Positions 3,521 through 46,724 of a DNA stretch of 60,032 nt are shown here, piece after piece. The stretch is from UHGV virus genome UHGV-0168673. One strand, written 5' to 3'. Position 1 is the first letter of the stretch. The number at the start of each line of letters is the position of its first letter. The position numbers and the translations under genes are program-made. This DNA is from a virus. The notes beneath the pieces are model-generated. The model saw nothing but the letters and a program-made list of their open reading frames with translations. It was not told the DNA's origin and ran no database searches.

Positions 3521-4377
3521 ATTGCCATTTTCCCTTTAATTGCTGGATGCGATTCATAATTTTCAAGGATAAAATCTTTCGGTTTCATGTATTCAGTTAA
3601 CCAGTAAAGCTGTGTTTCGGTGTCACAATTTCCAAACTCTATAGGCCAATCAATTTTAAGTTCACACAGTTCTTTAGGCTCACGACGTAAAATTTCTTTA
3701 CATTGTGCAGTATGATTCATATAGATGTGAGTATTACCACCAGAAAATATCAAATCTCCTGGGATAAGATTACACATCTTAGCCACAATATGCGTCAAGG
3801 CAGCGTACGAGGCAATGTTGAATGGCAAGCCCAAGAAAACATCTACACTTCTTTGGTACCATTGTAAATCAAGATAACCATTACGCACATTAAACTGATA
3901 GAACATATGACAGGGCGGTAATGCCATTTGATTGATTTCAGCTGGATTCCATGCTGAAACGATTTGACGTCGATCAGTTGGTAATTTTTTAATACGATCA
4001 ATAGTTTCAACTAATTGATCCACACCGCCGAAATCACGCCATTGTTTACCGTATATAGGACCAAGTTCACCACTATGATATCCTAGGTCTTTAGCCTGGT
4101 TTTCATAGTTATCGTCCCAAATAGTTTTACCTTGAATAAGACTGCCATGAGTGCGAAGACGTAAATCATTAACATTGGTAGAACCGGAAATAAACCATAG
4201 AAGCTCAGCAATGCATGCATTCCAGGCGAGCTTTTTAGTTGTTACTGCAGGAAAACCTTTGGTTAAATCCCAACGCAATTTAGTACCGAACAAAGCAATT
4301 GTTCCTGTGCCTGTTCGGTCATCGGTTTCATAACCATTTTCAAAAATGTCTTTAATTAAATCTTGGTATTGTTTCAT
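3517..4377 (-). CDS. td: Thymidylate synthase, uninterrupted (no intron)
   Basis: 286-aa continuous ORF; [26 protein letters not shown] and PPCH active-site region match T4 Td. Confidence 0.95.
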
Positions 4378-5971: not shown

Positions 5972-6214
5972 TCAAATAGACTTTTTCACAATTTTCCAAT
6001 CAGCTTTAAACTGATCAACGTCAGAGTGATAAATCCAAAATCCTGCGCTTTCTCCATCCTCATAAAGAGGGCATCTATCACATTCATCTTCCCATCCCAT
6101 ATCACGCAAAAGATGTTCAGCTTTTTCAACAAGTTCAGAATCTTTACCGATGATATTAAAATACCATTTACCTCTAACTTCTGAATCTTTGATGCTTTGG
6201 CGTTGTAATCTCAT
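5972..6214 (-). CDS. Hypothetical protein
   Basis: 80-aa track ORF; GAGGAG SD and early-promoter module immediately upstream. Confidence 0.6.
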   Translation of the reverse strand: MRLQRQSIKDSEVRGKWYFNIIGKDSELVEKAEHLLRDMGWEDECDRCPLYEDGESAGFWIYHSDVDQFKADWKIVKKSI

Positions 6215-6243
6215 TTTATTCTCCTCAGTAGTTGATAGGGTAA

Positions 6244-6272
6244 TAGTATCACACTACTACCCTGTTGTAAAC
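6244..6272 (-). promoter_or_regulatory. Early promoter (-35 GTTTAC / -10 TGaTACTAT)
   Basis: Same module as at 7235; upstream of ORF 5972..6214. Confidence 0.55.
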
Positions 6273-6274
6273 AA

Positions 6275-6535
6275 TTATTTTTGAATTTTATCGAGCCACT
6301 TACCAAGCTTAATCATTTCTTTAGTAGCCTTTTCCATACTTCTGAACTTAACCAATAGAGGATAGGTATCGACACCCATAACTAAACTGGTTACAAGACT
6401 GTGTTCACCCACAAGCCATAATGAATACGTTTGAATATCGAGTCCGTAATTTCTGTCTTTATGGACCCGTACACCCATCACTTCAAATTTCTCACTAGCT
6501 TTTTCTACCGCATCCAGGAAATCATCTTTAGTCAT
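6275..6535 (-). CDS. Hypothetical protein
   Basis: Track ORF 6275..6577; I prefer the ATG at 6535 (MTKDDF..) one nt after the upstream stop (TAA-T-ATG coupling); the 6577 ATG is an alternative. Confidence 0.45.
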   Translation of the reverse strand: MTKDDFLDAVEKASEKFEVMGVRVHKDRNYGLDIQTYSLWLVGEHSLVTSLVMGVDTYPLLVKFRSMEKATKEMIKLGKWLDKIQK

Positions 6536-6963: not shown

Positions 6964-7191
6964 TTATTGTTCAATCAGTCCCATGTAAAATTCTGCGTCT
7001 TCAGAATCCATGCCATCACAATATTCATTAGCCATAAAGCGGGTGAGGTCTTCAAGAGGACCTTCAACAACAATTTGAATACTCCAAAATTTAGAATCTT
7101 GCACACTTGTGATACTAAGTTCAGGATAACGATTACGAATAATCTCTTCAATATATTCAAAATCAACAATGTCAATATCAACTTTAGCCAT
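6964..7191 (-). CDS. Hypothetical protein
   Basis: Track ORF 6964..7254; first ATG (MAKVDID) at 7191 preceded by GAGGAA and an early promoter. Confidence 0.55.
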
Positions 7192-7234
7192 ATTATTTTC
7201 CTCTTTAATCATCAGCAGTATTGCCGATAGTTGT

Positions 7235-7264
7235 ATAGTACCATGGAAGGACAAGGATGTAAAC
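7235..7264 (-). promoter_or_regulatory. Early (sigma70-type) promoter: -35 GTTTAC, 18-nt spacer, TG-extended -10 TACTAT
   Basis: Minus strand GTTTACA..TGGTACTAT with A/T-rich upstream region; directly upstream of ORF 6964..7191. Confidence 0.6.
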
Positions 7265-7289
7265 CGTTTTGTGAAAAAAATTTTTGAAA

Positions 7290-7316
7290 TAAAAAAAGGG
7301 GACCTCTAGGGTCCCC
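7290..7316 (-). terminator. Rho-independent terminator after gene 32
   Basis: Minus strand GGGGACC-CUAGA-GGUCCCC followed by UUUUUUU. Confidence 0.7.
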
Positions 7317-8247: not shown

Positions 8248-8330
8248 TTTTATTTCCTTTTTAATTTAATTAACAGTTGGTGCTATGACGATGTATGACC
8301 TCATAGCTGGTCAGTGAGATAATTATAATC
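8248..8330 (-). promoter_or_regulatory. Gene 32 mRNA leader: autoregulatory translational operator (pseudoknot plus unstructured UUAAA-repeat region)
   Basis: Minus strand ..GACCAGCUAUGAGGUCAUACAUCGUCAUAGCA..CUGUUAAUUAAAUUAAAAAGGAAAUAAAAAUG matches the T4 gene 32 operator as recalled. Confidence 0.7.
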
Positions 8331-8338
8331 TATTTATA
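8331..8338 (-). promoter_or_regulatory. Late promoter motif TATAAATA upstream of gene 32 leader
   Basis: Exact TATAAATA on minus strand, ~84 nt upstream of the gene 32 ATG. Confidence 0.45.
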
Positions 8339-8346
8339 ATAAGCAA

Positions 8347-9590: not shown

Positions 9591-10508
9591 TCAAAATTCA
9601 TTAATGCTATTAGTTAATTTAGAAAGACCCGCTTTTACAAAATATGAATAAATTTTGCCACGCGGTGGTAATTTATATGAATTATAGTAATTCACAATGT
9701 TTGAAGCAATATTATCAGGAATATAATCAAAATCAATTAGAACTAAATTTTCTTTATAACGATTATATTCAGATTCTGTGAGAAGCACCTTAGCTTGCTC
9801 ACGGTCATTAGCAATAGCTTCAACGATTGAAGTTTTCATTGAAGGGGTTCGTTCACCTTCAACTTTGGTAAACCAAAAGTCAGATCGTACTTTAACTGAA
9901 GCAACGTTATCCTTTTTATCGCCTTTAAGGATTTTAGTCATACAGTCAATTTCAGCAGAACCGCTTTTAATTTTAACCCATTTCTTATGCATCGGTGACC
10001 ATTGCTTAACATTTGGATATTTGTGAAGTTGAGTAAAGTCACCATCCGATGAAATGATTAAAATCTTGTGTCCTTCTAAAGAGAACTTTTTAACAAGAAC
10101 AGCAATGTGGTCATCTGCTTCATACTTATCAATATCCATAACGATGTATGGCATATAAGCTTTCAATTCATCTATAACTTTATGACTGGATTCAAAATAA
10201 CCTTCCCAGTCCCAAGTAGATTCTTCTCGTGCTTTTCCACGGTTTTTCTTATAATAATAAGCAAAATCACGACGCCAGTATCCAGATTTCGCGTTATCAA
10301 TACACAATACAATTTTAGTGTATCCAAGCGTTTTTGCTTTTTTGACATTAAACTTAATTGAGTTCAATATCAAATGACGAACCATTGATAAATTAATTTT
10401 TTCTTTATCTGGGAAGTTTACTAAAGCAGTTGAAAGCGCAATTTGACTAAAGTCAATAAAGCAAATTCCTTCTTTGTAGTCTTCATCCAACATCATTTCT
10501 AAATCCAT
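9591..10508 (-). CDS. rnh: RNase H (5'-3' exonuclease / flap endonuclease)
   Basis: Track ORF 9591..10523; internal ATG gives MDLEMMLDEDYKEGI.. (305 aa) as in T4 RNase H. Confidence 0.9.
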   Translation of the reverse strand: MDLEMMLDEDYKEGICFIDFSQIALSTALVNFPDKEKINLSMVRHLILNSIKFNVKKAKTLGYTKIVLCIDNAKSGYWRRDFAYYYKKNRGKAREESTWDWEGYFESSHKVIDELKAYMPYIVMDIDKYEADDHIAVLVKKFSLEGHKILIISSDGDFTQLHKYPNVKQWSPMHKKWVKIKSGSAEIDCMTKILKGDKKDNVASVKVRSDFWFTKVEGERTPSMKTSIVEAIANDREQAKVLLTESEYNRYKENLVLIDFDYIPDNIASNIVNYYNSYKLPPRGKIYSYFVKAGLSKLTNSINEF

Positions 10509-10570
10509 ATGAACCTCGTTCAATTAGTGAGATTTCTATTATATACCATCCGAATCTTAAAGTAAACAAG

Positions 10571-10578
10571 TATAAATA
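10571..10578 (+). promoter_or_regulatory. Late promoter TATAAATA for gene 34
   Basis: Exact TATAAATA 35 nt upstream of the gene 34 ATG. Confidence 0.75.
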
Positions 10579-10612
10579 CTTATTATTGAAAACACAATAG
10601 GAGCCCGGGAGA

Positions 10613-13600
10613 ATGGCCGAGATTAAAAGAAAGTTCAGAGCAGAAGATGGTCTGGACGCAGGTGGTGATAAAATAATCAACGTAGCTTTAGCTGATCGTA
10701 CCGTAGGAACTGACGGTGTTAACGTTGATTACTTAATTCAAGAAAACACAGTTCAACAATATGATCCAACTCGTGGATATTTAAAAGATTTTGTAATCAT
10801 TTATGATAACCGCTTTTGGGCTGCTATAAATGATATTCCAAAACCGGCAGGAGCTTTTAATAGCGGACGCTGGAGAGCATTACGTACAGACGCAAACTGG
10901 ATTACAGTCTCATCTGGTTCATATCAATTAAAATCTGGTGAAGCTATTTCGGTTAACACTGCGGCTGGTAATGATATTACATTTACTTTACCATCTACTC
11001 CAATTGATGGTGATACTATCATTCTCCAAGATATTGGAGGAAAACCTGGAGTTAACCAAGTTTTAATTGTAGCTCCAGTGCAAAGTATTGTAAACTTCAG
11101 AGGCGAGCAAGTACGCTCAGTACTAATGACTCATCCAAAGTCACAGCTAGTTTTAATTTTTAGTAATCGTCTGTGGCAAATGTATGTTGCTGATTATAGT
11201 AGAGAAGCTGTAATTGTAACACCAGCGAATACTTATCAAGCGCAATCAAATGATTTTATCGTACGTAGATTTACTTCTGCTGCACCAATTAATGTCAAAC
11301 TTCCAAGATTTGCTAATCATGGCGATATTATTAATTTCGTCGATTTAGATAAACTAAATCCGCTTTATCATACAATTGTTACTACATACGATGAAACGAC
11401 TTCAGTACAAGAAGTTGGAACTCATTCCATTGAAGGCCGTACATCGATTGACGGTTTCTTGATGTTTGATGATAATGAGAAATTGTGGAGATTGTTTGAC
11501 GGGGATAGTAAAGCGCGTTTACGCATTATAACGACTAATTCTAATATTCGTCCAAACGAAGAAGTTATGGTATTTGGTGCGAATAACGGAACAACCCAAA
11601 CAATTGAGCTTCAGCTTCCAACTAATATTTCTGTTGGTGATACTGTTAAAATTTCCATGAATTACATGAGAAAAGGACAAACAGTTAAAATCAAAGCTGC
11701 CGGTGAAGATAAAATTGCTTCTTCAGTTCAATTACTGCAATTCCCAAAACGCTCAGAATATCCGCCTGAAGCTGAATGGGTTACAGTCCAAGAATTAGTT
11801 TTTAACGGTGAAACTAATTATGTTCCAGTTTTGCAACTTGCTTACATAGAAGATTCTGATGGAAAATATTGGGTTGTACAGCAAAACGTTCCAACCGTAG
11901 AAAGAGTAGACTCTTTAAATGATTCTACTAGAGCAAGATTAGGCGTAATTGCTTTAGCTACACAAGCTCAAGCTAATGTCGATTTAGAAAATTCTCCACA
12001 AAAAGAATTAGCAATTACTCCAGAAACATTAGCTAACCGTACTGCTACAGAAACTCGTAGAGGTATCGCAAGAATAGCAACTACTGCTCAGGTGAATCAG
12101 AACACCACATTCTCTTTTGCTGATGATATTATCATCACTCCTAAAAAGCTGAATGAAAGAACTGCTACAGAAACTCGCAGAGGTGTCGCAGAAATTGCTA
12201 CGCAGCAAGAAACTAATACAGGTACTGATGATACTACAATCATTACTCCTAAAAAGCTTCAAGCTCGTCAAGGTTCTGAATCATTATCTGGTATTGTAAC
12301 TTTTGTATCTACTGCAGGAGCTACTCCAGCTTCTAGTCGTGAATTAAATGGTACAAATGTTTATAATAAAAACACTAATAACTTAGTTGTTTCACCTAAA
12401 GCCTTGGATCAGTATAAAGCTACGCCTACTCAACAGGGTGCAGTAATTTTAGCAGTTGAAAGTGAAGTAATTGCTGGACAAAGCCAAGAAGGATGGGCAA
12501 ATGCGGTTGTAACGCCAGAAACGTTACATAAAAAGACATCAACTGATGCAAGAATTGGTTTAATTGAAATTGCTACGCAAAGTGAAGTTAATACAGGAAC
12601 TGATTATACTCGTGCAGTCACTCCTAAAACTTTAAATGATCGTAGAGCAACTGAAAGTTTAAGTGGTATAGCTGAAATTGCTACACAAGTTGAATTCGAC
12701 GCAGGCGTCGACGATACTCGTATCTCTACACCATTAAAAATTAAAACCAGATTTAATAGTACTGATCGTACTTCTGTTGTTGCTCTATCTGGATTAGTTG
12801 AATCAGGAACTCTCTGGGACCATTATACCCTTAATATTCTTGAAGCAAATGAGACGCAACGTGGTACACTTCGTGTAGCTACACAAGTTGAAGCTGCTGC
12901 AGGAACATTAGATAATGTTTTAATAACTCCTAAAAAGCTTTTAGGTACTAAATCTACCGAATCGCAAGAAGGTGTTATTAAAGTTGCAACTCAGTCTGAA
13001 ACTGTGACTGGAGCATCAGCAAATACTGCTGTATCTCCAAAAAATTTAAAATGGATTGTGCAGAGTGAACCTACCTGGGCAGCTACTACTGCGGTAAGAG
13101 GTTTTGTTAAAACTTCATCTGGTTCAATTACGTTCGTTGGTAATGATACAGTTGGTTCAACACAACCTTTAGAATCGTATGAAAAAAATAGCTATGCTAT
13201 ATCTCCATATGAATTAAACCGTGTATTAGCAAATTATTTACCGTTAAAAGCAAAAGCTGCAGATAGTAATTTATTGGATGGTCTAGATTCATCTCAGTTC
13301 ATTCGTAGGGACATTGCGCAGACAGTTAATGGTTCACTAACCTTAACCCAACAAACGAATCTGAGTGCCCCTCTTGTATCATCTAGTACTGCTGCGTTTG
13401 GTGGTTCAGTTTCGGCAAATAGTACATTAACTATTTCTAATACTGGAACGGCAACTCGTCTGATTTTTGAGAAAGGACCTCAAACTGGAACTAACCCAGC
13501 ACAGACGATGACTATCAGAGTTTGGGGAAATCAGTTTAGTGGCGGATCAGATACAACGCGTTCTACTGTATTTGAAGTTGGTGATGAAACGTCTAATCAC

Positions 13601-20676: not shown

Positions 20677-20949
20677 TTATTTGTTCGTATACATCTCTAG
20701 ATATCGATATACACCCTCAAAACCCTCGTTGAATTCGTCGATGAGGGTTTTCTTATCTTCTTGAGTTAATTCAGAAACAATTTTACGGAATGAATTCTGA
20801 TTTAATTTTCTACCTTCATGCGTTACTCCAATCTCATTCAGAAATGCAATAAAATTAGCACGATTTTCAACAATATCTTCTCTGGAAAATTTAATCAAAA
20901 TAGACGCAACAGTAATAATTTCACGAACTGTATCAATGTTTTTATTCAT
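20677..20949 (-). CDS. asiA: Anti-sigma70 factor AsiA
   Basis: 90-aa ORF MNKNIDTVREIITVASILIKFSREDIVENRANFIAF.. matches T4 AsiA. Confidence 0.95.
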   Translation of the reverse strand: MNKNIDTVREIITVASILIKFSREDIVENRANFIAFLNEIGVTHEGRKLNQNSFRKIVSELTQEDKKTLIDEFNEGFEGVYRYLEMYTNK

Positions 20950-20961
20950 TAACTATACCAC

Positions 20962-21114
20962 TCAATTAGTTGACTTTGTTATAATATCATCAGACGCTTG
21001 ATTTGTAAACTGGTCTGTGTTATTTTCTTCAAAAATTTTTTCTACGAATTCTTTGAACGACTCACGTTCCTGAGCTACATTATGCTCGATTACCTTTTCA
21101 AGATTATGACTCAT
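20962..21114 (-). CDS. Small hypothetical protein (50 aa; position of T4 asiA.1), not in ORF track
   Basis: MSHNLEKVIEHNVAQERESFKEFVEKIFEENNTDQFTNQASDDIITKSTN; ATG overlaps the arn stop (ATGA); stop 12 nt before the asiA ATG. Confidence 0.5.
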   Translation of the reverse strand: MSHNLEKVIEHNVAQERESFKEFVEKIFEENNTDQFTNQASDDIITKSTN

Positions 21115-22768: not shown

Positions 22769-23404
22769 TCACAGTTCAGATGCTACAGTGATTACAGCTT
22801 CAATGTTTTCTGCCGAGCGTTTAATGTCAAGATACACATTACCGTTTTTAGCGATTTTACATGACATTCCGATATCAGTAAATTTCTGAATATGATGTTC
22901 CATCATTTTATATCCAAAAATTCGCATGTTTCCATTGTTGTTAATTTCAAAATTACGAATTCCGTGAGTGCGTTTTTCTAAAATAGCGAGATAGTTACTG
23001 CGATAAGTTTCAACCTTTTTAAGAACAAATCCATTTTCATCTAAAAGTTTTAACATGAGGTCTTTATCTTCTTCCATATCGGAAGTAATCTCGCGAGCTT
23101 TACGAGTTGCTCGTTTTTTCAGTAGTTCCGGAGCATTTTCTTGTGCGTATAAAGTTGCTGCATTTGAAATAATATCCTGAGCTTCACCAGTAATGATTAA
23201 TCCATCACCAGATTTCTCCACCAGGCCTTTTTTAATTAATACCCCAATATTACTATTAACTACTGCGTTACCTAAATCTGGATGCACCTCACGAACTTCT
23301 GCAGCTGTAATGAAATCTTTCTTAGCAATGGTAATTAAAATCGCAGCAGTTTTTTCATTCAGAACATCGTTAGAAGCTTTGATGATGTAAGTTACTTTAG
23401 ACAT
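22769..23404 (-). CDS. motA: Middle-transcription activator MotA
   Basis: 211-aa ORF MSKVTYIIKASNDVLNEKTAAILITIAKKDFITAAEVREV.. matches T4 MotA. Confidence 0.95.
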   Translation of the reverse strand: MSKVTYIIKASNDVLNEKTAAILITIAKKDFITAAEVREVHPDLGNAVVNSNIGVLIKKGLVEKSGDGLIITGEAQDIISNAATLYAQENAPELLKKRATRKAREITSDMEEDKDLMLKLLDENGFVLKKVETYRSNYLAILEKRTHGIRNFEINNNGNMRIFGYKMMEHHIQKFTDIGMSCKIAKNGNVYLDIKRSAENIEAVITVASEL

Positions 23405-23445
23405 TTTCTAATCTCCGTAATTCTGTATCAGTAGTTGATAGTTGT

Positions 23446-23475
23446 ATAGTACCACAGTATGCTTTGGTTGTAAAC
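23446..23475 (-). promoter_or_regulatory. Early promoter for motA (-35 GTTTAC, TG-extended -10 TACTAT)
   Basis: GTTTACAaccaaagcatactgTGGTACTAT on minus strand; A/T-rich upstream block identical to the module at 7258..7296. Confidence 0.6.
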
Positions 23476-23499
23476 CGTTTTGTGAAAAAAATTTTTGAA

Positions 23500-23527
23500 A
23501 TAAAAAAGGGAGAGCCGAGGCTCTCCC
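23500..23527 (-). terminator. Rho-independent terminator after the motA.1-like ORF
   Basis: Minus strand GGGAGAGC-CUCG-GCUCUCCC followed by UUUUUUA. Confidence 0.65.
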
Positions 23528-23533
23528 TAAAAA

Positions 23534-26445: not shown

Positions 26446-26571
26446 AGTAAGCGTTTAATACATCAATCATTAAAACGATTGGGAATATACTCAAAACTAT
26501 TAGTATTATAACTACATTCCATATAGCTTTAATAATCTTTTTCATTTTCTGTTCCTCCGTAGTTGATAGGG

Positions 26572-26601
26572 TAATAATACCACGGAAGAACAGTCTTGTA
26601 A
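26572..26601 (-). promoter_or_regulatory. Early promoter (-35 GTTTAC / -10 TGgTATTAT)
   Basis: Module followed by conserved leader and GGAGG SD; lies inside track ORF 26432..26680, whose likely true start is the ATG at 26545 (37-aa hydrophobic peptide). Confidence 0.5.
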
Positions 26602-26788
26602 ACAACTTTTTTAAAAATATTCGTAATAAATGTGAATACCAACTACTACCGCTGAAACCTGTGCAACCCACCACGCACAAGCAATAAGTACAGAATTCAA
26701 AATTTTCATAATAACCTCATTACAAAAGTAAATGTTAAACAAATTAATGGAATACTAATTAACCAAACGAAACACCACCATAGTGAAC

Positions 26789-27052
26789 TCATAACTCAAT
26801 CTCAGCGATTTTCATTTCATTACTATTAATAGCCGCTTTAAGACTATCTGAAAGAATTACACCCCAGTGGTCATTCATATGACCATTAATTAAGCGTGTA
26901 ATTTCTTCGGGAGTTGAAAAATAAGGCGTATCAGACTCCCAATGCGATAATCCTAAGCGAGTATAAATCATACCTTCATCATCGCTAGAATATTCAACTG
27001 ACACAAACTCATCAGTTATTTTATGTTTAGCGTAATAAAATTTAAATTTCAT
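26789..27052 (-). CDS. Hypothetical protein
   Basis: 87-aa track ORF with GGAGG SD and early promoter upstream. Confidence 0.5.
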   Translation of the reverse strand: MKFKFYYAKHKITDEFVSVEYSSDDEGMIYTRLGLSHWESDTPYFSTPEEITRLINGHMNDHWGVILSDSLKAAINSNEMKIAEIEL

Positions 27053-27080
27053 TTTCCGCTCCTCCGTAGTTGATAGAGTA

Positions 27081-27110
27081 ATAGTACCACGGTCCTTGTG
27101 GTATGTAAAC
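27081..27110 (-). promoter_or_regulatory. Early promoter (-35 GTTTAC / -10 TGgTACTAT)
   Basis: GTTTACAtaccacaaggaccgTGGTACTATTA on minus strand, upstream of ORF 26789..27052. Confidence 0.55.
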
Positions 27111-27128
27111 CGTTTTGTGAAAAAATTT

Positions 27129-27686
27129 TTAAATGGAAAGATACCATCCGTTGTAGTTGCTTTTTCTTACAACCTTACGAAGGTCTTCTCTGTCACCGAT
27201 GAACTTCGGAGTGTACTGGATGACACCTGGATGAATTTCTTTAGTGTTGAATATAATTATACAGTCAGCGACTTGATGATTTAGAATGGGCCCTAAATTT
27301 ATTCCAGAACCATATGGATACTCTCCGCTGCATCCCGTTGTTACCGAAATCCAACGCGAGTCAGTTTGATGTGTTTTGACTTCTACACGAAGCCCGCAAT
27401 ATTTTGGATGCGCTAAAACATCCCATGCATACGTGTACGGATCATCGACATTTTCTTGGCCTTTATTGACATATCCGCTTAGCCAATCTGCCACAAAAAA
27501 CTCTGCGTACACAGCGATACGGCATCTTTCGATAACTTCTGCTTTATCCTGGTTCGGGTTTTGTTTTAAAGAGTATCTTGCTGTATCAGCAATTTTGACC
27601 TTCATTTCACTAGTCAAGTCACTGTTCGATAGGGTAAATGTCGGAATCTGAAATAGTCTCTGTAAACCCGGATTCGTTTTCTGCAT
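27129..27686 (-). CDS. denB: Endonuclease IV DenB (cytosine-DNA specific)
   Basis: 185-aa ORF MQKTNPGLQRLFQIPTFTLSNSDLTSEMKVKIADTARY..; T4 DenB size. Confidence 0.9.
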   Translation of the reverse strand: MQKTNPGLQRLFQIPTFTLSNSDLTSEMKVKIADTARYSLKQNPNQDKAEVIERCRIAVYAEFFVADWLSGYVNKGQENVDDPYTYAWDVLAHPKYCGLRVEVKTHQTDSRWISVTTGCSGEYPYGSGINLGPILNHQVADCIIIFNTKEIHPGVIQYTPKFIGDREDLRKVVRKSNYNGWYLSI

Positions 27687-27730
27687 TTAAACTTTCCTTT
27701 ATGTCGGAATCATAATTTCTCTTAAAACAA

Positions 27731-27746
27731 AAGGGCCGAAGCCCTT
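27731..27746 (-). other. Intercistronic C(UUCG)G RNA hairpin
   Basis: Minus strand AAGGGC-UUCG-GCCCUU between ORF 27750..27944 and denB. Confidence 0.6.
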
Positions 27747-27749
27747 ATT

Positions 27750-27944
27750 TTATTTGAATTGTGCGATTCTTTTCTCTAGACACTCAGCATAAGATTTCAT
27801 TGAGATGAACTGCGAAAGTAGCAGTTCTTGCTCAACTGCGTTAACTGTTAGAAACTTTGCGCTTTCTAAAAATTTGCTCAGTGCATTAATTTTGAGCATT
27901 AATTGATCGTATTCTTCTTTTACTCGTGCTTGATAACCTAACAT
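27750..27944 (-). CDS. Hypothetical protein (denB.1 position)
   Basis: 64-aa track ORF. Confidence 0.5.
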   Translation of the reverse strand: MLGYQARVKEEYDQLMLKINALSKFLESAKFLTVNAVEQELLLSQFISMKSYAECLEKRIAQFK

Positions 27945-27962: not shown

Positions 27963-27978
27963 AAGGGCCGAAGCCCTT
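27963..27978 (-). other. Intercistronic C(UUCG)G RNA hairpin overlapping the rIIB stop codon
   Basis: Minus strand AAGGGC-UUCG-GCCCUU. Confidence 0.6.
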
Positions 27979-28915
27979 ATTTAAATTGTTCAGTAACGTC
28001 TTCAACTACTTCGTATTGGCAGGTACGCATTTTAGCATCGTTGTAATCAATCGGAATTGATACTACATCACGTGGATGTACTTTAACTTTTACAACTCGG
28101 CTGGTTGAACTGCCAAAGTGACGAATATAAGATTTAGAACACACATGCAGACCACGAGAACAAGTTTGTGTATCATCGTCATTCACACGAGTACGCGGCA
28201 TTTTAACTACTTTACCAGGACTGTTATCAAAGGTGTTTGAGTGACAGTCAAAGTAGTTGTCACGAACTACTTTCCAAGCATAGAAGTAACCATCTTCTGT
28301 AATTTCAATATCGTTTGCTACCAAGAAATCAAAGAGTCGAGATACCGCTTTCTGGCTTGGGTTTTCCAGCAGATTTTCCAAGAACGGAAAATAAAATTCA
28401 AAGTTTTCACCTTTTTCCATCGAATCGAGAATACGATCAACTAAACCAGACCGTAATTCGATATTTTGATAGAACAAGCTTCCGCCTTCAATTCGAACAT
28501 CGCCGGAAATATATTTTTCAACAGCGCGACGAACATTAATTTTTTGTGCCGCTTCTTCCAACTTATCTGCTACAAGCAGATTAAGAATTTCCTGGAAGTT
28601 TGAATGAGTATTAGGAGTTGCGTTATAAGTTACACCGTCAACAGTAATTGAAATGAATTTTTTAGATGCATTCCAAATAATGTCAGATTTAGCAACTGGA
28701 GCAATAACTGCATCGCTATTAACTTTAACTGTAATATCACCGCTAATAGTAACTTTAGAGCGTTTAGCTTCTTCAGCATTTTTCAAAACACGACGAATTG
28801 TGTCAACCGATACACCTTGCCAATCAGCCAATTCCTGTTGGGTGTAATTACCGCTTGAATACAATTTAACAATTTCAGCTTGTTCGTTTTTGGTCAGGCA
28901 TTTAATATTGTACAT
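27977..28915 (-). CDS. rIIB: rIIB protein (rapid-lysis / membrane integrity)
   Basis: 312-aa ORF MYNIKCLTKNEQAEIVKLYSSGNYTQQELADWQGVSVDTIRR.. matches T4 rIIB. Confidence 0.95.
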   Translation of the reverse strand: MYNIKCLTKNEQAEIVKLYSSGNYTQQELADWQGVSVDTIRRVLKNAEEAKRSKVTISGDITVKVNSDAVIAPVAKSDIIWNASKKFISITVDGVTYNATPNTHSNFQEILNLLVADKLEEAAQKINVRRAVEKYISGDVRIEGGSLFYQNIELRSGLVDRILDSMEKGENFEFYFPFLENLLENPSQKAVSRLFDFLVANDIEITEDGYFYAWKVVRDNYFDCHSNTFDNSPGKVVKMPRTRVNDDDTQTCSRGLHVCSKSYIRHFGSSTSRVVKVKVHPRDVVSIPIDYNDAKMRTCQYEVVEDVTEQFK

Positions 28916-31114: not shown

Positions 31115-31318
31115 TTAATTCATATTACGCTTAATAACTTCAGCAACTTCTAGTAGTTCATCTTTAGTTGCAGTGTCGGATTGAATTTTATCTCTAATAT
31201 CTTTAAAGCGGTTTTTAAATTCTTCGGCTTCTCCCATATCGAAAAAGCGTTGAATGATTCTATATTCTCGATGAACTGCTTTATCAAAAAGTTCTAAATT
31301 TACTTTATATGATTTCAT
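31115..31318 (-). CDS. Hypothetical protein (rIIA.1 position)
   Basis: 67-aa track ORF. Confidence 0.6.
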
Positions 31319-31372
31319 TCCAATATCCTCATTTGCCCAATTAATTATACCACATCCTTGTGGTAAAGTAAA

Positions 31373-33190
31373 CTACTGGCTCATCCATTCTTTGCGAAGG
31401 TCAGCATTATCTCCCATGAGCATTTCAAAAAGCTCTTTCCAGTTCTCAGGAAGTTTAACAACATCATATACTGGGTTTTGAATCATCTCACGATATTCAG
31501 ATTTTTCCAAAGAGCCAAGTCCTTTAATATAACGGATGCTATGTTTAGGTAGAGCATCTTTGGCACTCTCATATTCAGCGACTGTATAAAACCATTCTTG
31601 TTTTTTACCGACCTGAGCGATGATTACAGGAGTTTTGACAAAGCGAATTCGTCCTTGCTCAAACAATTCTGGCCAATTACTAAAAAATCCGAGCAGAGAA
31701 GGATAAATGCTTCCTAGACCATCATGGTCAGCATCAGTCATAATAGCAATATTATGATAATTCAAGTTTTCAGCTTTTTCACCAAGAACTAGACCAGTGA
31801 TTGCGCAAATATCAAATAGTTCTTTGTTTTTAAGCATATCGGCATATGACATACCCCAGCTATTAAGAACTTTACCGCGCAATGGATAACCACCATGAAG
31901 TTCTTTATCGCGAACATCAATAAGATATCCGATAGCTGAATCACCCTCAGTCAAGAACAATGTAGTGTCAGCATCTTTACCGCAAAGATTCGCTTTAATA
32001 TGTTTATGAACCTTAGCTTTAGAAGCCTTTTTAGCTGCTTTAGTTTCTGCTGCTTTTTCTGCCGCCAATTTACGAGCCAAAGCAGCTTCAATAATCGGCA
32101 TCAGAATTGCTTCATTATTTAGAATAGCGCGTGAAATCTTTTTAGCGTCAAGTTGAATATGACTACGAATTTCGCCAAATGGAGAAGTCAAACGCTCTTT
32201 AGTTTGAGAATCAAATCGCATGTTTTTCATATCACGAACAAACATAACGATAGTCAAACATTCTTTAACGCGTGCTTTAGTTACATCAATTTTGAACTTA
32301 CGTTTGATTTGTGGAATAAGGTCTTCACAAATATCATCCATAACACAGTCAATGTGATGGCCACCATTCTTAGTATGAATGTTATTGACGTATGTTAATT
32401 GACGAAAACCATCCGGTGAACGACCAACCGCAATAGAACAATTTTCTTGTTCTTGAACAATAGCATGCTCATCATATTGGCGTGCATATTTCTTAAAATT
32501 ACCCTGAACCTTTTTACCATTAAAGGTAAATTGAATATCAGGATAAACAACAGCAAGTGTCTGGAGACGATCTAATGTAATGTCAAGATAAACTTGGGAC
32601 AGCTCATTAGTTTCAAATGACATAAAATCAGGAATGAAAGTAACACGGGTTCCTTTCCATTTTCCAGGAATATCTTCCCATGATTTATTTTCCATGCCGT
32701 TTGAACAACGAACTACAATATTATTTTGACCGTCGCCAGTTTCACCAACAAACATCACAGAAAAAATGTTTGTCAAACTAGAACCAACACCATTCATACC
32801 GCCGGTGACGCGTTCTTTATCATCACCGAAGTTACCTCCTGCTTTTGGAATAGTCCACGCAGCAACAGGACCAGGAATTTCTTCACCGGTAGGTGTTTTA
32901 ACCATCGCTTGTGGAATACCGCGACCGTTATCTTCAACTGTTACTTGATTGTTTTTAATAGTAACATTAATTTTATTTGCGAATTTAAACTTAGTACGAA
33001 TACCTTCATCTACTGAGTTATCGATAATTTCATCAATAAGCTTAACAAGACCAGGTACATACTGAACACTTTCCCATTTACCAAACAGAAAGCGCTCATG
33101 CATTTCATTAGCAGAAGAGCCAATGTACATGCCGCTACGCTTTTTGATATGTTCAATATCGCTCAGAATTTTAATTTCATTCTTAATCAT
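31373..33190 (-). CDS. 39: DNA topoisomerase II large subunit gp39, uninterrupted (T4 gene 39 + gene 60 equivalents in one ORF)
   Basis: Track ORF starts at GTG 33193; from the ATG: MIKNEIKILSDIEHIKKRSGMYIGSS..(GyrB-like ATPase) continuing through ..NIAIMTDADHDGLGSIYPSLLGFF..KEWMSQ (T4 gp60 segment); 605 aa. Confidence 0.9.
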   Translation of the reverse strand: MIKNEIKILSDIEHIKKRSGMYIGSSANEMHERFLFGKWESVQYVPGLVKLIDEIIDNSVDEGIRTKFKFANKINVTIKNNQVTVEDNGRGIPQAMVKTPTGEEIPGPVAAWTIPKAGGNFGDDKERVTGGMNGVGSSLTNIFSVMFVGETGDGQNNIVVRCSNGMENKSWEDIPGKWKGTRVTFIPDFMSFETNELSQVYLDITLDRLQTLAVVYPDIQFTFNGKKVQGNFKKYARQYDEHAIVQEQENCSIAVGRSPDGFRQLTYVNNIHTKNGGHHIDCVMDDICEDLIPQIKRKFKIDVTKARVKECLTIVMFVRDMKNMRFDSQTKERLTSPFGEIRSHIQLDAKKISRAILNNEAILMPIIEAALARKLAAEKAAETKAAKKASKAKVHKHIKANLCGKDADTTLFLTEGDSAIGYLIDVRDKELHGGYPLRGKVLNSWGMSYADMLKNKELFDICAITGLVLGEKAENLNYHNIAIMTDADHDGLGSIYPSLLGFFSNWPELFEQGRIRFVKTPVIIAQVGKKQEWFYTVAEYESAKDALPKHSIRYIKGLGSLEKSEYREMIQNPVYDVVKLPENWKELFEMLMGDNADLRKEWMSQ

Positions 33191-33217: not shown

Positions 33218-33245
33218 ATTATACTCCGGCAATCATAAAGCTAAA
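33218..33245 (-). promoter_or_regulatory. Candidate MotA-dependent middle promoter for gene 39
   Basis: Minus strand tttAGCTTTA (one mismatch to MotA box TGCTTtA), 12 nt, TATAAT. Confidence 0.35.
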
Positions 33246-33260
33246 GGCCCGAAGGCCTTT
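33243..33260 (-). other. C(UUCG)G hairpin / possible terminator upstream of gene 39
   Basis: Minus strand AAAGGCC-UUCG-GGCCUUU. Confidence 0.5.
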
Positions 33261-33529
33261 TATTTAAAACGAATAGTTGAATCCTTAAAGAACAGCCCAG
33301 AACATATTGTTCCTTCTACTTTCTGCCCAGTAGGTCCAATAGCACGAAATCCAGTATGTTGGAAATCATTTTCAGAACAACCAAACCAATTATATCCAGT
33401 GATTTCAATATTAGTAAAACCACTTGAAGATAAAATTTTAGTTGCATTATCAGCATCAGTGCATCCTACTAAAGATACTGCTAATACTAATGCTGCAATA
33501 GAACGATTAATATATTTCATAATTTTCAC
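33260..33529 (-). CDS. Hypothetical lipoprotein-like protein (39.1 position)
   Basis: 89-aa track ORF; N-terminal signal peptide ending LVGC (lipobox-like). Confidence 0.5.
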   Translation of the reverse strand: MKIMKYINRSIAALVLAVSLVGCTDADNATKILSSSGFTNIEITGYNWFGCSENDFQHTGFRAIGPTGQKVEGTICSGLFFKDSTIRFK

Positions 33530-34732: not shown

Positions 34733-35014
34733 TTAATTAAACATTGGAGCGATACGTTTCAGAAGAGTAGCAGCACCTTTAGCGAATTTTACATCATGAA
34801 AAACAGTTTCTTCTTCTGTAACAACTCGAACTTTAATATTTTCACAATCCCAATTTTTACGAACAATCTTCAAAAGCTGCAGTAAATCTTTACATTCAGC
34901 AATATCGATAACACATCCACGAGAATCTTCCATTATCGCACGATAACCGTAAGCCATACCATAATCATTGAAAGATTGCTCGATGATAATTAAGTTTTCC
35001 ATTTTATTCTCCAA
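34733..35014 (-). CDS. Hypothetical protein
   Basis: 93-aa track ORF. Confidence 0.5.
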   Translation of the reverse strand: MENKMENLIIIEQSFNDYGMAYGYRAIMEDSRGCVIDIAECKDLLQLLKIVRKNWDCENIKVRVVTEEETVFHDVKFAKGAATLLKRIAPMFN

Positions 35015-35099
35015 GTTGTTTTCTGTATCAGTAGTTGATATTGATATAGTACCATAATCAACTACTGATGTATATAGTTTTATGAAAAAAATTTAAACT

Positions 35100-35591
35100 T
35101 TATGCATAGCGAGCTTTGCTGTAGTGTTTAATCCAACTTTCAGGAATGACTTTGTATGTTCCTAAAAATACCGCGTTGTACAGCTTAACACCGTCTTCTA
35201 CCCACTGATCGGTAATGTATGCGCACATAGCACGAGTACGGTTAACAACCCCTTCCTCACCTTCAGTAAATTCAAACTCATAAGGAGCAACGAACTTAAT
35301 AGCCTGACCGAGTTTCCACTTAAAGTCTACACCTACATGCGAAGTATCAATCGTTTCAATTCCTTTAGCAGGAACAGCTTTCAAAAACGCAGATTCAAGA
35401 AATTTCGCACGAACATAGCCAAACTGAGTTTTAGACTTTCCATCTTTAGGAATGATACGCACTTTTACTTCAGAATCTTCATCTTTAACACCGTGTTTAA
35501 GCTGAATGCTTACAACTTCGACCAATTTTCCTGCTGCTTTAGAACGGGATTTATCAGATACACGAGCAATTTCACCGATATTAATAATCAT
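35100..35591 (-). CDS. Hypothetical protein, 163 aa (position and size of T4 MotB); shares a C-terminal domain with the next ORF
   Basis: Track ORF; C-terminal ..ITDQWVEDGVKLYNAVFLGTYKVIPESWI. Confidence 0.5.
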   Translation of the reverse strand: MIINIGEIARVSDKSRSKAAGKLVEVVSIQLKHGVKDEDSEVKVRIIPKDGKSKTQFGYVRAKFLESAFLKAVPAKGIETIDTSHVGVDFKWKLGQAIKFVAPYEFEFTEGEEGVVNRTRAMCAYITDQWVEDGVKLYNAVFLGTYKVIPESWIKHYSKARYA

Positions 35592-35635
35592 AGTTATCTC
35601 TCACTTGTTAAAAAGATTTTATACTCCACGGGACC

Positions 35636-35665
35636 ATTATACTCTGGTCCCAAGAGTTTGTAAAC
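35636..35665 (-). promoter_or_regulatory. Early promoter (-35 GTTTAC / -10 TATAAT)
   Basis: GTTTACaaactcttgggaccagagTATAAT on minus strand; -10 sits between a 7-bp inverted repeat GGGACCA/TGGTCCC. Confidence 0.55.
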
Positions 35666-36168
35666 TAGCTTACACGAACATTAATCACTGCGCTACGAGG
35701 AACTACAGAGTATTCTCCAGCATGAACTACGTTCAGAAGTTCAACGCCATCTTCAATCCACTGGTCAGTTACCCAACCACCGACCGGATTCGCGAATGGA
35801 CGACGAATGTAAACCGCCTTACACAACAAATCAGTCGGGTCTTCAATTTTTTCAACTGGTGCCACATACATAGAAACTAAATCCATATCAATATGGAATT
35901 TTTCCTGTTCTTCTTTTTCAATTTCTGTCAATAGACTAAAATCTTTTTCATAAATAATAAGCGATGACACCATTCCATAATAGTTTCTAATTTCAATATA
36001 CATCATGCCGATAAGAATTCCGCTATTAACACTAATAACAGTAAAAGGATATCCGCCAGTTAAAGCAAGAAGTTCACAAAACTTATTATGAGATGTATTA
36101 GACAGTACCGGAAAATTCTTAATTTCATCAAATTTTTTCAATTGATAAACAGCATTATTTTTAATCAT
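35665..36168 (-). CDS. Hypothetical protein, paralogous C-terminal domain to ORF 35100..35591
   Basis: 167-aa track ORF; ..VTDQWIEDGVELLNVVHAGEYSVVPRSAV. Confidence 0.5.
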   Translation of the reverse strand: MIKNNAVYQLKKFDEIKNFPVLSNTSHNKFCELLALTGGYPFTVISVNSGILIGMMYIEIRNYYGMVSSLIIYEKDFSLLTEIEKEEQEKFHIDMDLVSMYVAPVEKIEDPTDLLCKAVYIRRPFANPVGGWVTDQWIEDGVELLNVVHAGEYSVVPRSAVINVRVS

Positions 36169-36691: not shown

Positions 36692-36718
36692 TTTATTATC
36701 CTCAGTAGCTATGGTGTT

Positions 36719-36748
36719 ATAGTACCACAACTAACCGAGGAAGTAAAC
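36719..36748 (-). promoter_or_regulatory. Early promoter (-35 GTTTAC / -10 TGgTACTAT)
   Basis: GTTTACttcctcggttagttgTGGTACTATAA on minus strand. Confidence 0.5.
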
Positions 36749-36754
36749 AACTTT

Positions 36755-40583: not shown

Positions 40584-40612
40584 ACTATAACATTTTTACT
40601 TTAACTTGTAAA
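40584..40612 (-). promoter_or_regulatory. Early promoter upstream of the srd-like gene (-35 TTTACA, 17 nt, -10 TATAGT)
   Basis: Minus strand aTTTACAagttaaagtaaaaatgtTATAGT. Confidence 0.45.
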
Positions 40613-40628
40613 TAACTTTATGTAAAAA

Positions 40629-41893: not shown

Positions 41894-41919
41894 GATAGCC
41901 TCCGTATACTTCAGAAGCT

Positions 41920-41949
41920 ATCATATCATCGTTAGAAAGGAAAGTAAAC
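41920..41949 (-). promoter_or_regulatory. Early promoter for modB-modA (-35 GTTTAC / -10 TGaTATGAT)
   Basis: Minus strand GTTTACtttcctttctaacgaTGATATGAT. Confidence 0.5.
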
Positions 41950-46723: not shown

Positions 46724-46724
46724 A

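Follow-up and report, generated by a model that had tools for sequence, protein, structure and literature searches.

The early promoters of phage T4 are unusually strong and are the phage's means of capturing the host RNA polymerase. For E. coli, the UP-element consensus (rrnB P1 type) reportedly goes back to Estrem et al. in 1998. In the promoter-early stem-loop (PeSL) model (Arbiol 2010; Comeau 2014), an AT-rich region, an early promoter, an SD sequence and a start codon are combined with a stem-loop (PMC2839356, PMC4122927); the PST and T4 consensus is TTTACW-N17-TAYWAT, and the ndd.4/ndd.5 region was highlighted by Comeau et al. (PMC4122927). The PeSL with its ORF has been discussed beside lambdoid morons and integron cassettes (PMC2839356). 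A further element, the RegB/S1 site, is an 11-nt GGAGRAYARAA sequence in the translation initiation regions of early mRNAs, with the T4 consensus GGAGAAUAAAA; Durand et al. found that nothing specific is required 5' of GGAG, the motA RNA is a good RegB substrate, and the motB RNA is a substrate used by these authors (PMC1702504).

We analyzed a window of 60,032 nt, the whole stretch of phage DNA considered here, which shares 94–99% identity with Tequatrovirus genomes and is colinear with T4 from approximately 139 kb to 32.6 kb; judged by this identity and gene order, it is a Tequatrovirus segment syntenic with T4. The pattern GTTTAC-N18-TANNNT has 16 matches in the window, all on the minus strand, compared with 0.91 expected. 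We catalogued 16 cassettes, all in the early (counter-clockwise) orientation, upstream of early genes (frd.1, frd.3, rnh, asiA, motA, ndd.4, the ndd.6 side, rIIA.1, cef, motB, motB.2, modB, mrh.2, sp, dmd, and the imm.1 side), every one of which has a positional counterpart in T4 on the same strand and at the same locus. A −35 GTTTAC, a spacer of 17 or 18 nt and TAnnnT are exact in 15 cassettes, and the −35 is degenerate in one (35051); the minus strand has six exact occurrences of TATCAACTAC, all of them inside cassettes. The repeats are very probably sigma-70-dependent early promoters of a T4-like phage, including an exchanging subfamily of the PeSL type. Apart from the two loci described further below, the cassettes, named by gene or by the first base of the −10, are as follows.

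6212–6295, minus strand: predicted frd.1 early promoter cassette; −10 at 6248–6243; predicted +1 at 6236; an exact RegB/S1 site, GGAGAAUAAAA, closes the leader AUCAACUACUGA just before AUG.
10506–10590, minus strand: predicted rnh early promoter, counterpart of T4 Pe148.6; −10 at 10543–10538; predicted +1 at 10531, corresponding to T4 150,727.
20947–21033, minus strand: predicted asiA early promoter; −10 at 20986–20981.
26543–26626, minus strand: predicted ndd.4 early promoter cassette; −10 at 26579–26574; spacer almost identical to that of 54270.
27050–27133, minus strand: cassette below denB, predicted to drive an 87-aa ORF (26789–27052); −10 at 27086–27081.
31316–31396, minus strand: predicted rIIA.1 early promoter; −10 at 31349–31344.
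35000–35098, minus strand: cef-side cassette with a degenerate −35, ATATAC; −10 at 35051–35046; the leader AUCAACUACUGAUACAGA ends in an exact GGAGAAUAAAA.
35589–35688, minus strand: predicted motB early promoter; −10 at 35641–35636, with GGGACC/GGTCCC arms around it; leader site GGAGUAUAAAA.
36689–36771, minus strand: predicted motB.2 early promoter; −10 at 36724–36719; leader site GGAUAAUAAAA.
41891–41972, minus strand: predicted modB early promoter; −10 at 41925–41920.
43993–44087, minus strand: terminator after soc (44087–44066) and predicted mrh.2 early promoter; −10 at 44027–44022; the third true terminator–promoter composite.
48008–48091, minus strand: predicted sp early promoter; −10 at 48044–48039.
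48510–48594, minus strand: predicted dmd early promoter; −10 at 48547–48542, bracketed by an inverted repeat (9 bp, perfect in T4).
54225–54317, minus strand: cassette below gene 43, counterpart of T4 Pe26.4; −10 at 54270–54265; the leader ends in an exact GGAGAAUAAAA.

The near-copies that the first-pass annotation had listed are all real, their −10 elements beginning at 6248, 26579, 27086, 35051, 36724, 48044, and 54270. Further copies lie at 10543, 20986, 31349, 35641, 41925, 44027, and 48547, with a degenerate one at 40589. For an unannotated T4-like genome, this provides a map of 16–17 early promoters, three terminators and six probable RegB sites.

The consensus derived from the cassettes consists of an A/T-rich UP element, GTTTAC at −36 to −31, a TGTGG-extended −10 (tgTGgTA.tAT) and TAnnnT. 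It was compared with the promoter consensus published in PMC1524935, PMC2988021, and PMC4122927; it agrees with the T4 early promoter descriptions in the first two, and the cassettes match the PeSL consensus of the third, bearing out the initial impression that the repeats resemble T4 early promoters. Conservation exceeds the 99.9th percentile of random columns at −52, −44, −42, −40, −38, −17 to −13, and +2 to +8, all of them positions not used in selecting the cassettes. A generic sigma-70 scan was uninformative, since it returned 81 promoter-like sites compared with 81.8 expected; only the T4-specific pattern discriminates. In the promoters predicted here, the A/T-rich UP element would be bound by the C-terminal domains of the RNA polymerase alpha subunits, the other recognition elements being a T4-type −35, (G)TTTAC, a TGn-extended −10 and the −10 hexamer TAnnnT. 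The predicted start point lies 7 nt after the −10, which gives short leaders, with an SD and an ATG 19–38 nt after +1 in every cassette. This rule was validated on the T4 coordinates of Pe26.4 (27,044) and Pe148.6 (150,727; PMC6024815), onto which the predicted starts at 54258 and 10531, respectively, map exactly. Initiation in this phage is thus a prediction, with start sites assigned through T4 orthology. The A of AUCAACUAC is the predicted +1 and coincides with start coordinates published for T4; the ACAACU that had been taken for part of the transcribed leader is instead the discriminator (−6 to −1).

Three intrinsic terminators with T-runs lie upstream of cassettes (7298–7316, 23507–23528, and 44066–44087; dG −13 to −16 kcal/mol). 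The proposed composite of terminator, promoter and leader therefore holds at 7240, 23451, and 44027, whereas a search for hairpins and T-runs did not recover it at the other 13 of the 16 cassettes, and the term "terminator–promoter cassette" fits a minority. In these three, which include both loci of the 39-nt repeat treated below, the promoter adjoins the upstream gene's terminator, whose T-run passes directly into the UP element. Arms of at least 6 bp bracketing the −10 were found in 8 of 31 cassette types compared with 5.3% expected, and about half of the cassettes have neither an upstream terminator nor bracketing arms.

RegB/S1 sites matching at 10 or more of 11 positions were found at 6 of the 16 cassette-driven gene starts (the 6248, 23451, 35051, 35641, 36724, and 54270 leaders) and at none of the 85 other starts (p = 6e-6); the window has three exact GGAGAATAAAA sites, every one of which is within a cassette leader and overlaps the SD. 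In approximately one-third of the cassettes, the SD region would thus double as an 11-nt RegB/S1 site, and such a module of promoter and RegB site would give strong transcription at once and then a programmed inactivation of the early mRNA, the predicted sites presumably being cleaved by RegB in this phage. An Rfam scan of the whole window gave no family match and therefore no known RNA element in the leaders; a full-text literature search for the leader sequence (ATCAACTAC, CAACTACTGAGGA) returned nothing relevant. Conservation of AUCAACUAC at +1 to +9 has to be counted against the best explanation, which gives no function for it. NAD-capping at the +1A was considered as a cause of the conserved start and dropped, as the sequence from −3 to +4 does not seem to resemble a capping-favorable context.

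The first-pass annotation had also reported a 39-bp block identical at two loci. This 39-mer, TGTAAACCGTTTTGTGAAAAAAATTTTTGAAATAAAAAA, is indeed exact at 7258–7296 and 23469–23507, with 0 such repeats expected by chance in 100 shuffles; no third copy with up to three mismatches was found in the window. The features at the two loci, frd.3 and motA, are as follows.

7298–7316, minus strand: terminator hairpin after gene 32, GGGGACC-CTAGA-GGTCCCC, then a T-run; dG −13.1; "terminator" in fPS-90.
7265–7297, minus strand: T-run that passes into a full UP element (AAAAATTTTTTT..AAAA), most of the 39-mer; UP match 14/15.
7235–7264, minus strand: predicted frd.3 core early promoter; −35 GTTTAC at 7264–7259; 18-nt spacer ending in TGG; −10 TACTAT at 7240–7235.
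7189–7234, minus strand: frd.3 discriminator ACAACT and leader; predicted +1 at 7228; 37-nt leader with SD GAGG; ATG at 7191–7189.
23507–23528, minus strand: terminator after motA.1, AGGGAGAGC-CTCG-GCTCTCCCT, with T-run; nine pairs, six of them GC; "terminator" in fPS-90.
23446–23506, minus strand: predicted motA early promoter with the second 39-mer copy; UP; −35 GTTTAC at 23475–23470; spacer S9; −10 TACTAT at 23451–23446.
23402–23445, minus strand: motA discriminator and 35-nt leader AUCAACUACUGAUACAGAAUUAC; predicted +1 at 23439; ATG at 23404–23402.

The two loci have 77 nt in common at 86% identity (7226–7302 and 23437–23513), made up of the identical 39-mer and an identical 18-nt block of −10 and discriminator, with a differing spacer core between them. 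The 39-mer itself comprises the T-run of the upstream terminator, a near-perfect UP element and the −35. Scored over the 15 specified positions of −59 NNAAAWWTWTTTTNNAAAANNN −38, the UP element matches at 14 in both cassettes and lies at the expected distance from the −35; the block at 7265–7297 is identical to 23476–23507. In the annotated relative fPS-90, both loci are marked with "terminator" and "predicted early promoter". In the motA leader, a RegB-type site, GGAGAUUAGAA, doubles as the SD.

The identity of the 39-mers could reflect a recent non-crossover gene conversion between the frd.3 and motA cassettes, which are 16.2 kb apart; only conversions could survive there, because a crossover between the two would delete essential genes. 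The two copies have one rare allele in common (C at −58, A5T7, G at −37), found at neither locus in 13 other two-locus genomes, the nearest being the frd.3 copy of fPS-90, which differs at −37; in T4 the two copies are likewise identical to each other but belong to a different chimeric allele, and ectopic transfer of the adjacent spacer between frd.3 and motA is documented in Pu-Krd-SF7, PinkRuby, and others. However, one transition and the lengths of homopolymers, which are easily mutated or mis-sequenced, are all that separates the alleles; identity within a genome was observed in 3 of 14 genomes compared with 1.3 expected (permutation P = 0.084); and the mean within-genome distance of the UP block equals the permuted value and is no smaller than that between genomes. 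Concerted evolution of the two 39-mers, suggested by the comparison of T4 with the window, is thus unsupported across the 14 genomes. Because the UP element is close to the consensus and offers few polymorphic sites, and given this P value, the identity requires no recent exchange, and we consider a recent conversion possible but doubtful. Copies were paired on GenBank Tequatrovirus genomes instead of IMG/VR contigs; a scan of the IMG/VR viral contigs for the 15-mer CACAAAACGGTTTAC had returned 56 loci, mostly chance matches in unrelated contigs, and was set aside.

Beyond the 39-mer, alignment of the cassettes revealed mosaic sharing that extends well past the −35 and −10 hexamers. Three pairs share at least 19 of 23 positions of the UP block (0.01 expected from column shuffles) and five pairs share at least 20 of 24 positions of the leader block (0 expected), the 27086 cassette having the same type of UP block as 7240 and 23451; the partners are discordant from segment to segment. 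Across 15 genomes, four spacer alleles are found in the frd.3 cassette, S15 being the one of this window, and three of the four also occur at the motA, ndd.6 or motA-distal loci; Pu-Krd-SF7, PinkRuby, and others carry a motA-type spacer at frd.3. Each of the frd.3 spacer alleles has exact matches (51/51) in several phages, roughly 85–320 records apiece. The chimeric cassettes therefore appear to derive from recombination between copies, as in the PeSL model, and the long blocks that frd.1, frd.3, motA, ndd.4, the ndd.6 side, cef, and the imm.1 side share beyond the functional consensus would serve as portable homology, presumably for the phage's own recombination system. Through exchange between nonallelic cassettes, short patches, the 18-nt spacer among them, would be swapped. 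Nine of the 16 promoters show no trace of exchange and are stable orthologues, which sets them apart from this subfamily.

It is conceivable, and we put it forward only tentatively, that the subfamily forms a genome-wide network of short-patch ectopic gene conversion in which frd.3 is a recurrent recipient, three of its four alleles having been donated, in which spacer swaps between invariant flanks retune promoter strength or regulation, and in which the repeats bracketing the −10 as well as AUCAACUAC are functional and not simply inherited by common descent. Each frd.3 allele is present in tens to hundreds of phages. Candidate functions for such elements include processing of read-through RNA, open-complex formation and S1 loading. 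We found no match for a network of this kind, or for such roles of the bracketing repeats and AUCAACUAC, in the papers examined, beyond the general PeSL model.

Pure functional convergence, in which each copy was selected independently toward an optimal promoter, leader and SD without any exchange, is improbable as an account of the repeats as a whole and is largely refuted for the mosaic subfamily. The most strongly conserved blocks do coincide with functional elements (UP at 14/15, −35, extended −10, RegB/S1 site), the nine stable promoters have only consensus positions in common, and identity of the UP block within genomes falls short of significance. However, a null model of column shuffles that preserves the consensus fails to reproduce the shared blocks; the 18-nt spacer, which has no known sequence requirement, is alike at 13 of 14 positions between the 54270 and 26579 cassettes; the spacers behave as discrete alleles that switch loci between phages; and junctions of ORF indels lie inside cassettes, with overlaps of 17–23 nt.

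These junctions bear directly on exchange between cassettes, the reading we prefer. In comparisons with T4, LF73P3, and ES21, breakpoints fall at 6212/6228 and 6285 in the frd.1 cassette and at 34993–34995 on the cef side; with T4, LF73P3, and TH09 they fall at 27047–27090 in the 27086 cassette, where TH09 has 702 extra nt. Alignments overlap by 17–23 nt at the junctions. In T4 the ndd.6-side cassette drives what is left of the 87-aa ORF, eight codons, whereas the window has this ORF intact; LF73P3 and ES21 have the order cassette, 75-aa ORF, cassette, motA, and the 54270 cassette of the window drives an extra 78-aa ORF (53991–54227) ahead of imm.1, bounded by ATGAAAAT. Exchange between neighboring cassettes, or between a cassette and a gene start of the ATGAAAAT type, would add or remove such small ORFs. 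Cassette spans contain 13 of 68 breakpoints compared with 3.6% expected under a uniform null (p = 7e-7), but this enrichment vanishes against other gene boundaries, so that structural breakpoints are no commoner at cassettes: 5 of 17 cassette boundaries were hit compared with 25 of 80 others (OR 0.92, p = 1.0), and among boundaries with gaps of at least 60 nt the counts are 4 of 12 and 5 of 17. Many breakpoints lie instead at homing-endonuclease genes or at GGGCCGAAGCCC terminators. Without enrichment per boundary, the case for shuffling rests on the mosaic alleles and the anatomy of the junctions and not on position alone. The initial suggestion that the cassettes are sites of recombination or module shuffling thus stands as far as mosaic alleles and junctions inside cassettes are concerned, but not in its use of the identical 39-mer as evidence of exchange.

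A dedicated site-specific system or mobile element, with integron-like attachment sites or a miniature transposon, is barely credible and was rejected: Arbiol et al. raise a possible helper recombinase and liken the PeSL with its ORF to integrons, and the cassettes do flank small, variable ORFs, but the junctions are scattered over UP (6285), −10 (23454, 27090), leader (6228, 27055–27068), and ATG (34993, 54214), in keeping with homology-driven exchange and not with cutting at one fixed position, T4 has all 16 cassettes at the corresponding loci, neither terminal inverted repeats nor target duplications were seen, and similar indels occur at unrelated repeats (GGGCCGAAGCCC terminators and a 49-nt repeat at 46721/47079).

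Both the early promoters and their role in shuffling are already published, and the observation is real but ordinary; what it recovers from raw sequence are two established T4 themes, multi-element early promoters and the portable homology of PeSLs. Morons and integron cassettes likewise consist of small accessory ORFs moving together with a promoter and a terminator of their own; here, in contrast, the homology for exchange is provided by the regulatory sequences themselves, and there is neither an integrase nor a fixed attachment site. As in E. coli, a full UP element (14/15 positions) is held by the 39-mer, but here it belongs to a phage early promoter and its distal end is the U-tract of an upstream terminator. 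The leader 3' ends of six cassettes match the RegB/S1 targets of Durand et al. (2006; PMC1702504) at 10 or more of 11 positions, whereas ten cassettes lack a good site, and the conserved 5' part of the leader, AUCAACUAC, lies outside the defined RegB site. From the T4 early promoters, with their UP, −35, TGn, and −10 elements, there is no essential difference: architecture and consensus are alike (GTTTAC at −36 to −31, an A-rich UP, a GT-rich extended −10 and TAnnnT), and this phage varies in the frd.3 spacer alleles, the ndd.6-side leader and the ORF that follows some promoters. Compared with the described PeSLs (PMC2839356, PMC4122927), an upstream stem-loop is present at only 3 of the 16 cassettes, several others having arms that bracket the −10 as in the RB49/phi1 class, and in this sample the cassettes are not enriched in breakpoints relative to other gene boundaries; the composite of AT-rich region, early promoter, SD and start codon is the same, with a stem-loop at some of the cassettes, chimeric cassettes and small-ORF indels between neighboring cassettes are seen here too, the ndd.4/ndd.5 region being among the variable loci, and the proposed mechanism is that of the published PeSL model.

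The 39-nt block TGTAAACCGTTTTGTGAAAAAAATTTTTGAAATAAAAAA, which the first-pass annotation had described as identical at two loci, is indeed found exactly at 7258-7296 and 23469-23507; a search of the window for a third copy at three or fewer mismatches returned none, and none is expected by chance. The near-copies listed alongside it are also real, as repeat finding joins both 39-mer loci with 6211, 26542, 27049, 35037, 48007, and 54233. A pattern search of the window for GTTTAC-N18-TANNNT gave 16 matches against 0.91 expected, with 16/16 on the minus strand, and the decamer TATCAACTAC has exactly six minus-strand occurrences, every one just 3' of such a promoter. The repetition of this cassette, an early promoter with its leader, is far beyond chance. 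A generic sigma-70 scanner showed no discrimination (81 sites vs. 81.8 expected). An exact GTTTAC-N18-TACAAT at 11066-11095 (minus strand) lies antisense within the tail-fibre gene 34, with neither an SD nor an ATG downstream and not at the T4 oriG equivalent (about 12,750); it may be an antisense promoter or may have arisen by chance.

The window derives from a Tequatrovirus, with phage TH09 as the closest match (98.9%) and T4 about 94% identical at the locus, and is colinear with T4 from ~139.2 kb across the coordinate origin to 32.6 kb. Sixteen cassettes were placed 5' of genes, assigned by position, and a probable 17th early promoter was found upstream of the srd orthologue, where the -35 is ATTTAC in the window versus GTTTAC in T4, LF73P3, and ES21.

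Cassettes and the genes they precede (first base of the -10, minus strand, where used as a name).
6248: frd.1
7240: frd.3
10543: rnh
asiA
23451: motA
26579: ndd.4
27086: ndd.6 side, below denB
rIIA.1
35051: cef
motB
motB.2
modB
44027: mrh.2
sp
dmd
54270: imm.1 side, below gene 43
40584-40613, minus: probable early promoter upstream of srd, ATTTAC-N18-TATAGT

Aligned on the -10, the 16 cassettes give the consensus aAaa..tttt.A.AaA...GTTTAC, an 18-nt spacer ending in tgTGg, TA.tAT, a 6-nt discriminator, and aTcaacTA..ga. Both hexamers were used for selecting the cassettes, so that their conservation is by construction; the non-selected positions -52, -44, -42, -40, -38, -17 to -13, and +2 to +8 nevertheless exceed the 99.9th percentile of random columns, and because conservation extends to these positions the similarity is not confined to generic hexamers. 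The proposed identity as T4 early promoters agrees with the published consensus, in which GTTTAC spans -36 to -31, UP-like A-rich sequence covers -40 to -44, and a stretch rich in G and T lies upstream of -12 (PMC1524935), also described as "UP/-35/TGn/-10" (PMC2988021) and, for the promoter-early stem-loops (PeSLs) of PST/T4, as TTTACW-N17-TAYWAT (PMC4122927). With +1 predicted 7 nt past the -10, the starts of cassettes 54270 and 10543 fall at T4 coordinates 27,044 and 150,727, which are the Hinton laboratory coordinates for regions beginning at Pe26.4 and Pe148.6, both promoters studied by primer extension (PMC6024815). The ACAACU previously read as transcribed leader is therefore the untranscribed discriminator; transcripts are predicted to begin with AUCAACUAC, and leader length ranges from 19 to 38 nt.

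On the transcribed strand, the 39-mer runs from the T-run of the upstream terminator through AAAAATTTTTTTCACAAAACG to GTTTAC. Both copies match the UP consensus, -59 NNAAA(A/T)(A/T)T(A/T)TTTTNNAAAANNN -38 (Estrem et al., quoted in PMC5664571), at 14/15 specified positions, the highest among all cassettes. A canonical terminator hairpin with T-run was found 5' of only three cassettes.

Terminators before cassettes.
7240: after gene 32
23451: after motA.1
44027: after soc

The terminator-promoter-leader composite thus holds for these three and is a minority, not the general, form. The record of Yersinia phage fPS-90 annotates a "terminator" and a "predicted early promoter" at the frd.3 and motA loci alike.

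The target of the phage RNase RegB with S1 is the 11-nt single-stranded GGAGRAYARAA, with T4 consensus GGAGAAUAAAA (Durand et al., PMC1702504). The leaders of 6248, 35051, and 54270 end exactly in GGAGAAUAAAAUG, the only exact sites in the window, and those of motA, motB, and motB.2 score 10/11. Scores of at least 10/11 were reached by 6/16 cassette-driven gene starts versus 0/85 other starts (p=6e-6). Since leader 3' ends match this target, the conserved SD end would be explained as a known device for early-mRNA inactivation, an account that does not extend to the 5' part, AUCAACUAC. An Rfam scan of the window gave no match.

The cassettes are mosaic, as segments have discordant partners. In the UP segment, 7240 equals 23451 and is near 27086; in the spacer, 54270 is near 26579; by leader, 54270, 23451, and 35051 form one group and 27086, 26579, and 6248 another. 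Against a column-shuffle null that keeps per-position base frequencies and breaks linkage between positions, three UP pairs were at least 19/23 identical (0.01 under the null), five leader pairs at least 20/24 (0 under the null), and the best spacer pair, 54270 versus 26579, reached 13/14 (null mean best 8.9); consensus-preserving shuffles are unable to reproduce the common blocks. Nine promoters (dmd, sp, mrh.2, modB, motB.2, motB, rIIA.1, rnh, and ndd.4) have stable orthologues in seven genomes, among which the AUCAACUAC subfamily shows whole-segment variation. The frd.3 cassette carries four 18-nt spacer alleles between invariant flanks in 15 genomes.

Spacer alleles of the frd.3 cassette.
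S15: 7/15 genomes; at no other locus
S14: 4/15; also ndd.6-side cassette
S11: 3/15; also motA-side cassette of LF73P3
S9: 1/15 (Pu-Krd-SF7); also motA cassette

Allele-specific queries of 51 nt, including the frd.3-specific leader, matched exactly in several phages per allele, in approximately 320 (S15), 100 (S14), 85 (S11), and 85 (S9) records, counts that overlap somewhat as their sum exceeds the number of genomes. Because the essential genes 32, 59, and 33 and the tail-fibre genes separate the frd.3 and motA cassettes, we infer that exchange between them would be viable only as non-crossover patches, in keeping with the observed pattern. The idea of homogenization of the 39-mers came from T4 and the window phage, each with two identical copies of alleles differing between the phages. 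Block variation in 14 genomes is limited to position -58 (C/T), position -37, and A-run and T-run lengths; within-genome identity (3/14 genomes vs. 1.3 expected, P=0.084) and a mean within-genome distance equal to the permuted value do not support it. Recent conversion may have occurred in the window lineage, because both window copies carry an allele unique to them in the sample.

Chained alignments to T4, NIC06P2, LF73P3, ES21, TH09, and T2 gave 68 unique breakpoints, tail-fibre genes excluded. The suggestion that gene-order breakpoints fall at cassettes stands relative to sequence fraction (13/68 in spans covering 3.6% of sequence, p=7e-7) but not per gene boundary (5/17 with vs. 25/80 without a cassette, OR 0.92, p=1.0; 4/12 vs. 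5/17 for gaps of at least 60 nt). Many other breakpoints lie at homing-endonuclease genes (mobE, I-TevI, segG, mobA, segF, segA) or GGGCCGAAGCCC terminator repeats. Compared with T4, the window has no mobE, no td intron with I-TevI, no segG, and no 1.1-kb insert (60.1, mobA, gene 60 bypass region), and its segF, dam, and segA/beta-gt regions are different; homing-endonuclease cassettes thus lie behind a large share of structural differences.

Window positions of these differences from T4.
670-726
3825-3830
8310-8346
31708-31773
44283-44779
45300-47079
51514-52461

Junction anatomy is more specific than breakpoint counts. In LF73P3 and ES21, a 75-aa ORF and then a second cassette stand between the first cassette and motA, and the alignments overlap by 23 nt; at the cassette 27086, TH09 has 702 extra nt and the overlap is likewise 23 nt. 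In the window, a 78-aa ORF between cassette 54270 and imm.1 is flanked by the repeat ATGAAAAT, and the ndd.6-side 87-aa ORF (26789-27052; MKFKFYY...SNEMKIAEIEL-stop) is intact; in T4 the cassette there drives only an 8-codon C-terminal remnant, MKIAEIEL-stop (AF158101 ~166,996-167,048). The T4 deletion junction is at ATGAAAATCGCT, and T4's leader at this ndd.6-side cassette, up to and including the first four codons (ATGAAAATCGCT), is nearly identical to the leader at its imm.1 locus. Junctions are spread between UP element and start codon, which fits homology-driven exchange rather than a fixed recombination site.

In T4 (AF158101 ~146,004-146,143), LF73P3, and ES21, the gene driven by the frd.1-side cassette is a hydrophobic, unannotated ORF of 22 aa, MFAPYIMAAVMLVCLYLLIKAC, between frd.2 and frd.1; these 62 nt are missing from the window (equivalent 6212-6228), where the first gene behind the cassette is frd.1 itself. 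Terminator-like hairpins of nearly identical sequence, AAGGGCCGAAGCCCTT with a T-rich tail, form a family at 27731-27753, 27963-27985, 33244-33266, 57167-57189, and 59114-59136, two copies being 232 nt apart with a small unit between. Indels at these hairpins (LF73P3, 242 nt at 27700-27708; ES21, 219 nt at 57186-57189) recall the GGGC/GCCC-associated T4 deletions (Mosig, cited by Arbiol et al., PMC2839356). A 49-nt direct repeat, 94% identical (46721-46769 and 47079-47127, 358 nt apart), spans a gene start; 46734-47716 is absent from NIC06P2, and alignments of T4, LF73P3, and ES21 resume at 47079. Here a non-cassette repeat has mediated either a tandem duplication or an indel.

Perfect inverted repeats flank the -10 hexamer in some cassettes, the 5' arm lying in the spacer and its 3' partner running from the discriminator to +6 (e.g., GACAAGACT/AGTCTTGTC at T4 dmd, GGGACC/GGTCCC at motB).

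Repeats bracketing the -10.
48542-48571: dmd
35636-35665: motB
6243-6272: frd.1
10538-10567: rnh
35046-35075: cef side

Such arms occur in 8/31 distinct cassette types (7 genomes) versus 5.3% for mismatched pairings of spacer and downstream sequence (p=1.7e-4); both would be cotranscribed only in read-through RNA from upstream. In the cef-side cassette (35046-35075), which has a degenerate -35, ATATAC, the spacer ATCAGTAGTTGAT is the reverse complement of the start of the cassette's leader (35027-35039), ATCAACTACTGAT; T4, NIC06P2, and TH09 share this arrangement.

For T4, early promoters, UP elements, and RegB sites belong to textbook knowledge. Mosaic segments, spacer alleles at several loci, and junction anatomy bear out the cassettes as candidates for recombination or module shuffling, and both have been described before: the composite motif and its proposed modular-shuffling role were published as PeSLs for RB49/phi1 (PMC2839356), and a further study broadened this to the T4/PST and KVP40/nt-1 pairs, with the ndd.4/ndd.5 region among the cases (PMC4122927). 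Our additions are modest: the catalogue for the window genome, spacer alleles as evidence of ectopic exchange in short patches, the lack of enrichment per gene boundary, and, in one quarter of the cassette types, inverted repeats around the -10, which resemble the RB49/phi1 PeSL class "stem-loop overlapping the -10 box".
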